A stretch of DNA of 64,000 bases from Dehalococcoidia bacterium (lineage in GTDB: Bacteria; Chloroflexota; Dehalococcoidia; UBA6926): NCBI GenBank assembly GCA_965243495.1, contig CBDEUZ010000007.1:1511743-1575742 (forward strand), given 5' to 3'. This document shows positions 37,043-39,031 of the stretch, piece by piece. Position numbers and translations under genes: made by a program. The notes under the pieces are model-generated. The model searched no databases. It worked only from the letters and a program-made list of their open reading frames with translations, and was not told the DNA's origin. Each line of letters opens with the position of its first letter. The first letter of the stretch is position 1.

Positions 37043-39031
37043 TTATGTGGATGCTACAACTAGATCGTCCGAAACTACCTGCTCTTGCTCTTTGGCTCTC
37101 GCCCGTCCGGTGGAACAGTGATCCAGAATAGGACACTCAAAGCACTTGGGGGAACCCGCTTTACAGACCATCGCTCCAAGATCAAGCAATGCTTGGTTCC
37201 AGTCGGAATCAGGCCCCGGTGTTCCCGAGAGCCGATGCAGTTCAAGCCTCATTTCCCAATTGGCCCGCGATCCGTCTTCATCCAAAACTCGACGGGCTAT
37301 TCGGCGTGTGTTTGTGTCCATTAGCACACTGGGTCTGTCGTGGGCAAAGCACAGGGCGGCGGAGGCAATGTAATCACCTACGCCAGGAATAGCCATCAGC
37401 TCCTGACGATTACGCGGCACCTCACCATCATGTGCCTTAATGACGTGTCTAGCGGCGTCGGCAAGGCTGTCCACGCGCCACTTTAGCCCAAGTGTTGCAA
37501 GTGGTGAGGAGAGCCGTTCAAAGTTGTCCAAGAAGAGTCTCGGCGTCCGCCCCAACCTCAATACGTCATCGGCCACTTCGGCCACTTGGTCGGCTCGAGT
37601 TCGATGTAGGCACATCTCAATAAGTAACACTTGCCACTCGTTGAGACGTTTGGTTCGCCAGGGGAAACCTCTTCGGTTGGTACGGAACCAAGAAAGAAGG
37701 TCGCCCCTGAATTCCCTAGGTCCGAACGAGCTGGGGGCAGGTTCCTCACGCACGATGTGTACCGCCTCCACATCCTGACCAAGTGCGCCTCTGATGGCGT
37801 TGGCCATCGTCTCAGCCAGAAGGGGCGGGACAGCATTCCCGATTTGTCTGAAGCGAGTCGAGGGAGCACCGGCAAACCTGAATCTGTCTGGAAACGTCTG
37901 GATCCGCGCTGCCTCTCTAACGGAGAGAGTCCGATTCCGAGTCGGGTGTATGTACCAGTAACCATCTTTGGCGATGTGCGCCGTGATCGTGCGGCTAACA
38001 TCATCCAGTGAGAGCCGATAGTACTTGTCAGTAAAGATGTCTGAACGGTAGCGCCTCAGTTCCTCTGGTACGTCTGCGTAAGTACCGCCTGGCTGCAGAA
38101 TCTCGTAAATCCTTGCGTCATCAGGCCGCACCCCGCGGGTGACGTGATCCCGGATGATTTGTCTCTCCGCTCCTCTAAGTCCTTTTCGCATTCGACGTGC
38201 AAGGCGCGACATCTTCTTTGGGCGGATGTAGAGCTGCTCCTCGTCCCGGACGTCCGGGCCAATATCGGGTAAATCCTCGATTGCCTCTCGTAGTGTCGGC
38301 AGTCGACGAGACATTGGGCGCGGCCATTCAAATGTGGCACCCTGCGGGGTTCCAACTACAAAGAGGCGCGAACGGTGCTGGGGTACGCCAGCTTGAGATG
38401 CTTGCAGCACCTTAGCGTGGACTTCGTAGCCCCTGATCTCCAGTTGGCTCACCAGCTCAACAAGAACCGCCCCATCTTGGGCGACAGTGAAGCCTTGGAC
38501 ATTCTCAAAGAGAACAGTGGCAGGTCTGAGATGATCGACGATCGTAAAGAAGCTTCGCCACAGATCGGCTCGCCTGTCCTCTGCGTTACGTCGTCCCTCC
38601 CTCACGAGACTGCCTATCTTGGGTACACCTGCGAGCGAGAATGGCTGGCAGGGAGGGCCACCCGCCACCAAATCTACTGATTCAATGCCCCACTCGCGGA
38701 GCTGGTTAATGAACGCCTCGGGATCGCTGAGGTCGCCAGTCCATGTCAGCCCTTCGATGTTATGAGCATGGCTCTCAACTGCGAGCGTGTCCGCATCCGC
38801 CGCAGCTACTACTGAGAACCCAGCTTCCTCCAAGCCAAGACTGAGACCACCTGCGCCGCAAAAGAGGTCGATAGCCCACGGCCGTGGCTTGGAGTTGAGC
38901 CATGAGCGCACCGCGCTCTTGTCGTCTGGATCTGGAGAGAGACCATGTCGCTCCAATCTAACCCGTTGTCCCGGGCGCGAGGGCAGCCTGAACCGCTTCT
39001 TGGGCTGGGAGGGTGCCAATAAACCAGTCAT
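37043..39031 (-). CDS. DNA (cytosine-5)-methyltransferase fused to C-terminal HhH-GPD [4Fe-4S] glycosylase (Mig/EndoIII-like)
   Basis: C5-MTase motif I DLFCGAGG and motif IV GGPPCQPFS. C-terminal HhH …IPGVGDYIASAALCFA… and a Cys cluster CKAGSPKCFECPILDHC. Confidence 0.75.
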   Translation of the reverse strand: MTGLLAPSQPKKRFRLPSRPGQRVRLERHGLSPDPDDKSAVRSWLNSKPRPWAIDLFCGAGGLSLGLEEAGFSVVAAADADTLAVESHAHNIEGLTWTGDLSDPEAFINQLREWGIESVDLVAGGPPCQPFSLAGVPKIGSLVREGRRNAEDRRADLWRSFFTIVDHLRPATVLFENVQGFTVAQDGAVLVELVSQLEIRGYEVHAKVLQASQAGVPQHRSRLFVVGTPQGATFEWPRPMSRRLPTLREAIEDLPDIGPDVRDEEQLYIRPKKMSRLARRMRKGLRGAERQIIRDHVTRGVRPDDARIYEILQPGGTYADVPEELRRYRSDIFTDKYYRLSLDDVSRTITAHIAKDGYWYIHPTRNRTLSVREAARIQTFPDRFRFAGAPSTRFRQIGNAVPPLLAETMANAIRGALGQDVEAVHIVREEPAPSSFGPREFRGDLLSWFRTNRRGFPWRTKRLNEWQVLLIEMCLHRTRADQVAEVADDVLRLGRTPRLFLDNFERLSSPLATLGLKWRVDSLADAARHVIKAHDGEVPRNRQELMAIPGVGDYIASAALCFAHDRPSVLMDTNTRRIARRVLDEDGSRANWEMRLELHRLSGTPGPDSDWNQALLDLGAMVCKAGSPKCFECPILDHCSTGRARAKEQEQVVSDDLVVAST

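Follow-up and report, generated by a model that had tools for sequence, protein, structure and literature searches.

A C5 cytosine methyltransferase fused to a predicted Mig-type [4Fe-4S] glycosylase at the head of an Mza-like operon

A single gene joins a methyltransferase to a glycosylase

We analyzed a 64,000-nucleotide (nt) stretch of a Dehalococcoidia bacterium genome (Chloroflexota; assembly GCA_965243495.1, contig CBDEUZ010000007.1, positions 1,511,743 to 1,575,742), referred to here as the window. Our subject is a minus-strand gene at 37043..39031, which encodes a C5 cytosine methyltransferase (MTase) and, on the same polypeptide, a helix–hairpin–helix (HhH) [4Fe-4S] glycosylase predicted to be of the Mig type. 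This fusion gene is the first of a five-gene operon of MzaB/C/D/E-like genes. Translated from the ATG at 39031, the product has 662 amino acids (aa); an alternative TTG start at 39046 (open reading frame (ORF) 37043..39046) gives 667 aa. Residues are numbered from the TTG throughout, save those of the linker model, which are counted from the ATG. The gene ends with TAA (37043–37045), and no stop or frameshift lies between the methylase and glycosylase halves of the window ORF. The initial annotation had proposed that both activities reside in one polypeptide, and this holds: the minus-strand ORF is single and unbroken, and the same architecture is intact in 58 of 80 loci fetched from other species.

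The N-terminal half is, judged by its motifs, a complete C5 cytosine MTase, and methyl transfer is predicted. Its domain (aa 59–418; 37793..38872, minus strand) matches Pfam PF00145 DNA_methylase (5.6e-60; 203.9 bits versus a cutoff of 22) and scores above the cutoff for NCBIfam TIGR00675 dcm (1.7e-52; 179.1 versus 100.65). The canonical motifs noted earlier, FCGAGG and PCQ, were found, as motif I (within DLFCGAGG, aa 60–67) and within motif IV, GGPPCQPFS (aa 129–137); motif VI, ENV, and motif X, QIGNAVPP, are present as well. The catalytic cysteine of motif IV, Cys133, is encoded at 38648–38650 (minus strand). Across the aligned window protein and 118 full-length homologues (58–93% identity), these four motifs are invariant save for conservative changes at C63 (conserved in 111/119), A65 (118/119) and P408 (118/119).

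Between the halves lies a linker of ∼17 residues, DVEAVHIVREEPAPSSF (37724..37774, minus strand), variable in sequence and predicted to be disordered. In the AlphaFold2 (AF2) model its residues 420–436 have a predicted local distance difference test score (pLDDT) below 50, and its columns of the homologue alignment hold no consensus residue. The full-length AlphaFold model (predicted template modeling score 0.80) consists of two confident domains around this disordered linker. A fold search with the full-length model returned matches on the MTase half only (DNMT1, MET1, 3G7U and M.HaeIII), and no precedent for the two-domain fold.

The C-terminal half retains the catalytic residues of Fe–S HhH-GPD enzymes

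The glycosylase domain (aa 446–651; 37094..37711, minus strand) has a two-lobed, all-helical HhH-GPD fold, as indicated by its match to PDB entry 1KEA (7.4e-26), by the AF2 model and by Foldseek. The HhH that had been read in this region is matched by Pfam HHH at aa 539–567 (E = 4.8e-07), and ∼210 C-terminal residues match Mig.MthI, MutY and EndoIII. Among all PDB chains, the best sequence match of the domain is Mig.MthI (1KEA), then Geobacillus MutY (7e-24) and EndoIII (3e-17). Pfam HhH-GPD (PF00730) did not reach E ≤ 0.01 on the window protein, though it is recorded for relatives. NCBIfam TIGR01084 mutY covers aa 446–651 at 3.3e-34, with a score of 118.7 against a cutoff of 286.5 and a match confined to profile positions 2–213 of 277; TIGR01083 nth scores 52.6 versus 211.7.

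The alignment to 1KEA spans the Glu, Tyr and Asp residues of the active site as well as the four cluster cysteines. The catalytic aspartate is Asp577 (LMDTN; 37316–37318, minus strand), which lies in a segment reading IPGVGDYIASA...LMDTN, composed of the HhH, a Gly/Pro-rich loop and the Asp, and which aligns with D144 of both Mig and MutY. The Glu characteristic of MutY and Mig is Glu477 (LLIEMCLHRT; 37616–37618, minus strand), and Tyr559 (GVGDYI; 37370–37372, minus strand) occupies the site of the Nth lysine. The [4Fe-4S] cluster loop, CKAGSPKCFECPILDHC (37115..37165, minus strand), has C628, C635, C638 and C644 aligned with the cluster cysteines of Mig.MthI and MutY, in exactly the C-x6-C-x2-C-x5-C spacing described by the initial annotation. 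Each of these seven residues (E477, Y559, D577 and the four cysteines) is invariant in all 119 aligned sequences. Thus, neither an interruption of the frame nor a loss of HhH-GPD catalytic residues, either of which would have spoken against the earlier reading, was seen. With Tyr559 at the EndoIII lysine position, no AP-lyase step (cleavage at the abasic site) is expected, and the glycosylase is probably monofunctional.

The AF2 model of the glycosylase domain is confident (pLDDT 93.5). Its Foldseek template modeling (TM) scores are 0.82 to 1KEA, 0.84–0.86 to MutY and 0.77 to EndoIII. As modeled, the fold places the domain in the Fe–S HhH-GPD branch but lacks the power to separate Mig from MutY. 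Neither NUDIX_4 nor a MutY C-terminal domain was found with Pfam and NCBIfam. Because the glycosylase domain stops ∼15 residues before the end of the protein, there is no MutY C-terminal domain for recognition of 8-oxoguanine (8-oxoG). The closest stand-alone relatives of the domain are similarly short, at 215–250 aa.

The substrate pocket resembles that of Mig.MthI

To compare pockets, we read residues at Mig positions 27, 42, 46, 47, 50, 126, 144, 146, 186, 187, 190 and 191 from an alignment of 170 domain sequences. Residues known to discriminate Mig from MutY include A50 and L187 in Mig versus V45 and Q182 in E. coli MutY, plus F27, R47 and Y126 (Chang et al. 2009, PMC2714593). The signature of the window protein is FEHRAYDNNQLD, that of Mig.MthI FERRAYDNNLMD and that of Bst MutY LEQQVYDNNEIE; unfused relatives encoded next to Dcm show [Y/F]EHRAYDNN[F/Y][L/I/V]D. 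Among the aligned sequences, the only true MutY (P0205, with a NUDIX_4 domain) shows the MutY signature. At Phe27, Arg47, Ala50 and Asp191 (Mig numbering) the window pocket is Mig-like rather than MutY-like, and Arg47 and Ala50 are invariant (119/119). These sequence data indicate that the C-terminal half is a Mig-type glycosylase. Pocket, sequence and linkage to methylases together make T:G and U:G mispairs its most likely substrates.

Several observations weigh against that specificity. At Mig position 187, the window protein has Gln618, and Gln is found in 105 of the 119 fusions, as at Q182 of E. coli MutY and not Leu as in Mig. In E. coli MutY this Gln reads adenine, and the A50V and L187Q changes jointly move Mig.MthI toward A/G (PMC2714593). 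Sequence scores to Mig.MthI and MutY are close (94 versus 88 bits), Foldseek gives a tie, and the domain is just ∼30% identical to either protein. The best NCBIfam glycosylase match is mutY, and Tyr559, at the EndoIII Lys120 site, excludes Nth but not MutY, since Bst MutY also has Tyr there. Taken with the placement of MutY as top Foldseek match and the weak A/G activity of wild-type Mig.MthI (PMC2714593), these points could describe an adenine glycosylase of the MutY kind, with A:G or A:8-oxoG as substrate, which would be a general antimutator that hitch-hikes on the methylase gene.

We regard such an adenine glycosylase as unlikely. The NUDIX-like 8-oxoG-recognition domain is missing, and the mutY score of the domain, although the best in NCBIfam at 3.3e-34, is far under the cutoff. 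The Val45/Gln182 pair that confers adenine specificity on MutY is incomplete in the fusions, where Gln is present in 105/119 and Ala replaces Val in 119/119; Arg47, Phe27 and Asp191 are likewise Mig-like. Moreover, position 187 varies in the wider Dcm-linked family (L43, Y27, W25 and F11 among 148 representatives), which suggests that Gln is a clade variant and not a conserved adenine reader. Finally, C5-MTases and this domain occur fused in either order and as neighboring genes, as described below, a linkage that has no evident reason if the enzyme is an adenine glycosylase. A Mig-type enzyme thus remains our reading of this half.

The fusion is conserved and widespread

Among 5.8 billion proteins, we found at least 120 homologue clusters of the fusion, 595–682 aa long, with 87–99% query coverage and 60–93% identity. 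The MTase half has a median identity to the window protein of 68%, and the glycosylase half one of 61%. When each half is compared with the window over 58 intact fused loci, the two sets of identities are correlated (r = 0.94), and therefore MTase and glycosylase evolve as one unit. A scan of species-representative genomes, one per species, with an alignment of the glycosylase domain gave 256 confirmed loci; the 80 loci referred to here and below are the best of these. MTase and glycosylase matches share one ORF in 65 of the 80, intact in 58, while related loci L012, L021, L026, L028, L032, L036 and L041 are disrupted.

Most of the best 80 loci come from Dehalococcoidia metagenome-assembled genomes (MAGs), and the closest fusion is 94% identical. 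The other hosts include Solirubrobacterales and other Actinomycetota, Dormibacteria, Caldilineaceae, Acidobacteriota and the isolate Desulforudis sp. Tu-874, whose locus lies at NZ_CP187479.1, 1415081–1435680. The Synechococcus elongatus plasmid pIITB6_1 likewise encodes a full-length fusion, WP_338438709.1, as a single 641-aa RefSeq coding sequence named 'DNA cytosine methyltransferase'. Indeed, database names for these fusion proteins refer to a cytosine methyltransferase only.

Could the fusion be an artefact, produced by a frameshift, by an overlooked stop or by chimeric joining of neighboring dcm and glycosylase genes during assembly? In favor of this, the Dehalococcoidia genome was probably derived from a metagenome, and some related loci are clearly disrupted. 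Yet the ORF is single and intact, with a linker of much the same length, in 58 independent species-level genomes, and the intact copies include complete chromosomes, the Desulforudis isolate (L063) and the S. elongatus plasmid. The chance of an artefact is negligible: the fusion is real, and neither chance nor misassembly accounts for it.

The same pairing occurs in other arrangements. In the most distant of the 80 loci, from Poribacteria, Latescibacterota, Gemmatimonadota, Archaeoglobales, Thaumarchaeota and Bathyarchaeia, a separate glycosylase ORF of ∼225 aa directly follows or overlaps dcm; counted by lineage, such neighbors of dcm occur in seven distant ones. Fusions in the reverse order, with the glycosylase N-terminal and the MTase C-terminal, were found in three proteins (P0304, P0319 and P0344). 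An exhaustive profile search for the wider glycosylase family returned 5,933 representative clusters at E ≤ 1e-30, the top matches being mostly stand-alone proteins of 215–250 aa. Two candidates for other arrangements were set aside. P0121 and similar proteins looked like stand-alone close homologues, but P0121 starts in the tail of MTase motif X, beside an Mza-like set, and is a truncated remnant. A Thermus thermophilus plasmid does not carry a clean fusion; it has a 405-aa Dcm followed by an unannotated glycosylase-like stretch beside an IS1634 element.

Adjacency, both fusion orders and co-evolution argue, by the Rosetta-stone principle, that methylase and glycosylase work in the same pathway. 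The initial annotation had suggested that methylation is coupled to repair of deaminated 5-methylcytosine (5mC). That proposal gains support from the Dcm-adjacent unfused glycosylases, the two fusion orders and the correlation between halves, with the T:G activity itself being predicted.

Strictly, this linkage argues only for repair of something that the MTase causes. The glycosylase might instead remove another by-product of the methylase: either uracil alone, formed when the MTase deaminates cytosine, or alkylated bases, for example 3-methylcytosine. Rosic et al. in 2018 reportedly described 3-methylcytosine as an off-target lesion of C5-MTases. The variable pocket position 187 would permit differing substrates, but the window domain groups with the Fe–S Mig, MutY and Nth enzymes, and known alkyl-base HhH glycosylases sit in other HhH clades. 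Although Mig.MthI handles U/G as well as T/G (PMC2714593), it is as a T/U:G glycosylase that this closest characterized enzyme acts. We consider a substrate range that omits T:G improbable.

The fusion heads an Mza-like operon

Homologues of MzaB, MzaC, MzaD and MzaE follow the fusion gene in that order (PADLOC 4e-73, 4e-142, 1e-20 and 2e-76, respectively). The first is a GHKL ATPase of the MORC/MutL type (35568..37031, minus strand; HATPase_c_3 1.9e-32; NCBIfam MzaB 1.9e-88, below cutoff; PADLOC MzaB 4.3e-73), whose likely true start is the ATG at 37031, 11 nt after the fusion stop. Three further genes lie downstream of it, tightly packed or overlapping. They include a gene for an MzaD-like DUF4420 protein with a PD-(D/E)XK nuclease fold (31843..32889, minus strand; DUF4420 5.4e-73; PADLOC MzaD 9.9e-21) and one for an MzaE-like AIPR protein (29784..31868, minus strand; AIPR 4.3e-102; AIPR_N 9.1e-39; PADLOC MzaE 2.3e-76). 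NCBIfam scores for the Mza families are far under the equivalog cutoffs (297 versus 850, 563 versus 1500). In canonical MZA, mzaA encodes a sigma factor (PMC9523054), and a sigma-70 family MzaA is seen in L083; here, the first gene instead encodes the MTase–glycosylase. The published MZA accounts that we compared make no mention of a glycosylase domain.

Small genes flank the operon on both sides. Directly downstream is a gene for an 8xMP membrane protein (29268..29720, minus strand; PF24838 4.5e-37); an ORF 72% identical to it also follows the operon in a close relative, L003, and this may be an accessory gene of the operon. Directly upstream of the fusion is a 59-aa ORF (39156..39335, minus strand) without a Pfam match. 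Relatives of this ORF, 44–67% identical, occur in nine loci (L002, L003, L008, L010, L032, L037, L038, L050 and L059) and stand beside the operon, at its head, in the four checked (L002, L003, L010 and L050). We regard its product as a candidate for a small regulatory protein of the operon, possibly akin to the controller proteins of restriction–modification (RM) systems. A scan of the operon for promoters and terminators gave nothing above chance.

The operon is part of a low-GC island of ∼24 kb (19000–45400), with a GC fraction of 0.51–0.60, mostly <0.58, versus ∼0.61 in the left flank. At the ends of the island are diverged duplicates of a 293-aa gene (19104–19985 and 44393–45274), with 73–78% nucleotide identity. 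A serine recombinase gene (21079–22761, minus strand) marks the left edge, and tRNA-Gly (45394–45468) lies just to the right. The island is probably an integrated mobile element or a defence island. Six copies of a palindromic element resembling repetitive extragenic palindromes (REP), CGTCATTCCCGCGAAAGCGGGAATCCAG, flank it at 19020, 20058, 20165, 20272, 44217 and 45323; three of these form tandem 107-nt units (20054–20374).

Other genes of the island were also noted. Divergent from the fusion, and beside it, is a gene for a 193-aa GIY-YIG protein (39813–40394, plus strand; LEM-3-like GIY-YIG 1.3e-06; weakly, PADLOC PD-T4-3 7.8e-07), which was found in none of the related loci. Farther along is a gene for a 1119-aa protein of secreted or membrane type (40624–43983, minus strand), with fn3/Ig-like domains and 13 matched RCC1 repeats, the latter encoded by 111-nt DNA repeats. 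It is bracketed by a 52-nt direct repeat (40422–40473 and 44168–44219, 96% identical), which suggests a separate insertion. An AAA_15/AAA_21 ATPase gene (526 aa) and an overlapping 157-aa ORF without a family match (22970–25020, plus strand) may form a second, two-gene defence system of the island. A Replic_Relax/helix–turn–helix protein is encoded at 26542–28521 (minus strand).

The cassette accompanies unrelated effector modules

We surveyed the genes near the glycosylase in the 80 loci, where one locus can carry two modules. Mza-like genes were present in 41 of the 80. A DrmA/DrmB-like pair (helicase plus DUF1998), like that of class 2 DISARM, occurred in 19, and a double-GHKL protein, usually with a receiver-like protein, in 13. 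A β-CASP nuclease was seen in two loci, both of which also have the DrmAB-like pair. In addition, a reverse-order fusion sits ahead of HD-CE and ORC/CDC6-like genes. The cassette therefore accompanies at least four unrelated modules: Mza-like, DrmA/DrmB-like, double-GHKL plus receiver-like, and HD-CE plus ORC/CDC6-like. The closest relative, L002 (CBDBNN010000002.1), has the 94%-identical fusion followed by only a fragment of MzaB, and also carries the double-GHKL and receiver-like pair. Apparently, the effector module was exchanged in this lineage while the MTase–glycosylase was retained. The converse arrangement is found on Pseudarthrobacter plasmid pASPHE302, where an Mza-like operon has a plain 390-aa Dcm. 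Together, the many unrelated partners and this plain-Dcm operon show that the glycosylase belongs to the methylase and not to the effector.

These data bear on the possibility that the glycosylase plays a part on the defence side, either as a PabI-like restriction glycosylase or in sensing, as the inactive EndoIII domain does in END nucleases. The gene is encoded within a defence operon, restriction glycosylases exist (PMC10273834), and HhH domains serve as modification sensors in END nucleases (PMC12191111). In addition, most of the partner systems include a MutL-like GHKL ATPase, and MutL cooperates with Vsr (PMC2292703). However, the catalytic residues are invariant, which is not expected of a dead sensor. 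The domain stays with the MTase while the effector set changes among at least four unrelated ones, and operons that are otherwise identical do without it. Its partner on the polypeptide is the protective MTase and not a nuclease, and none of the fetched loci has an intact fusion as a self-sufficient stand-alone pair. A defence-side role thus seems quite unlikely, somewhat more so than either an adenine glycosylase or a different by-product of the methylase.

Two features of these neighborhoods must also be set against the proposal that the glycosylase is a dedicated T:G repair partner. In L053 (Solirubrobacterales MAG DASVAT010000005.1), a Vsr-like ORF (8165–8491) lies immediately upstream of the fusion and is 40% identical to our E. 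coli Vsr probe over 110 aa. A Vsr-like gene beside the fusion would be redundant if both repair T:G. The E. coli Vsr probe was run on 86 sequences (85 related loci and the window), and L053 was the only one with a match. Furthermore, three annotated plasmid operons with Mza-like genes and a plain Dcm lack both Vsr and a glycosylase; such systems can therefore do without a dedicated repair partner. These three operons bear as well on the notion that the fused glycosylase displaced Vsr, under which plain-Dcm Mza-like operons were expected to carry Vsr. With no Vsr in any of them, displacement was not demonstrated.

DISCUSSION

We propose that the fusion is a methylate-and-repair cassette, in which a C5 methylase carries a tethered Mig-type T:G glycosylase. 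Weighing the evidence above, we put the probability of this reading at roughly two in three (0.68). Deamination turns 5mC into thymine, and C5-MTases can themselves promote the deamination of C to U; methylated sites are consequently hotspots of C-to-T mutation. In the proposed mechanism, the MTase half would protect host DNA from the linked effector, as the self-marking module of a phage-defence operon, and deamination would generate T:G and U:G mispairs at exactly the sites it methylates. Held by a flexible linker, the glycosylase domain would flip the mispaired T or U into its pocket and use Asp577 and Glu477 to cut the glycosidic bond, leaving an abasic site that base-excision repair of the host would turn back to C:G. 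Through fusion, a mutagenic methylase that passes from genome to genome would be sure to bring its antimutator along, and the two would be inherited and expressed together. The arrangement may also enrich the glycosylase at the sites that the methylase targets. C5-MTases bind mismatches at their target base tightly, and targeting by the MTase half is conceivable.

The closest known counterpart is Mig.MthI, encoded with M.MthTI on the Methanothermobacter plasmid pFV1. Like the fused domain, Mig.MthI (1KEA) is a catalytic-domain-only HhH [4Fe-4S] glycosylase (∼220 aa) with Glu42, Tyr126 and Asp144 and a pocket that includes Phe27, Arg47 and Ala50. It too is genetically linked to a C5-MTase, and it repairs T:G and U:G arising from 5mC deamination. 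The two-gene layout of M.MthTI and Mig.MthI is shared by the unfused relatives in archaea and other phyla. The window protein differs in being a single polypeptide, in its ∼30% identity and in having Gln, not Leu, at position 187. Its partner, moreover, is a multi-gene Mza-like module and not a simple type II enzyme, and hosts of the fusion are mostly mesophilic Dehalococcoidia and Actinomycetota.

Dcm and Vsr offer a second parallel. E. coli Vsr is an endonuclease that repairs T:G at Dcm sites, and the fusion would follow the same logic, in that the C5-MTase behind the damage is encoded together with a T:G-correcting enzyme. Unlike the fused domain, Vsr is a nickase with a restriction-endonuclease fold and not a glycosylase, and it is made from a separate (overlapping) gene. 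Genes of Vsr-superfamily endonucleases stand beside DNA methylase genes in MORC/paraMORC RM operons (Iyer et al. 2008, PMC2292703). These operons are of the same type as that in the window, with a GHKL ATPase and a methylase.

Other likenesses are more distant. In eukaryotes, MBD4 is an HhH-GPD T/U:G glycosylase fused to a methylation-context module (PMC9266487), but its partner domain reads methylation rather than writing it, MBD4 has no Fe–S cluster, and the two fusions are evolutionarily independent. MutY has the catalytic fold (TM ∼0.85), the Glu/Asp pair and the Fe–S loop in common with the window domain, as well as Gln182 in the E. coli protein; the window protein differs in having no NUDIX-like domain, and Ala in place of Val, Arg in place of Gln and Phe in place of Leu in the pocket. 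END nucleases and PabI restriction glycosylases further show that defence systems have taken up HhH domains or glycosylase activity. In END nucleases the domain is inactive and attached to a nuclease, whereas the window domain is catalytically intact and fused to a protective methylase; PabI has a different fold and is itself the restriction component.

That a T:G repair enzyme travels with a C5-MTase is already known from Dcm–Vsr and M.MthTI–Mig.MthI, and no concept is overturned here. We found no published description of a Dcm–HhH fusion in the open-access literature, which is weak evidence of absence. The covalent MTase–Mig fusion, its abundance in both orders and its role as modification module in Mza-like, DISARM-like and other systems appear undescribed.

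Because C5 methylation is mutagenic, mobile methylases impose a fitness cost. The known remedies, Vsr and the rarely studied Mig, are both encoded by separate genes. The fusion would represent a third and widespread arrangement, in which the repair glycosylase is joined to the methylase itself, in several bacterial phyla and with unfused gene-pair relatives in archaea. It would serve as a portable cassette for several defence systems: Mza-like, DISARM-like, paraMORC-like and HD-CE/ORC-like. Its repair function is invisible in genome annotations and defence-system catalogues, where such proteins bear the label 'DNA cytosine methyltransferase' alone. If the prediction holds, the fusion offers a natural single-chain system in which to study how a writer and an eraser of the damage it causes, both of them base-flipping enzymes, share one DNA site. 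Such a protein may also provide a scaffold for sequence-targeted T:G or U:G excision tools.

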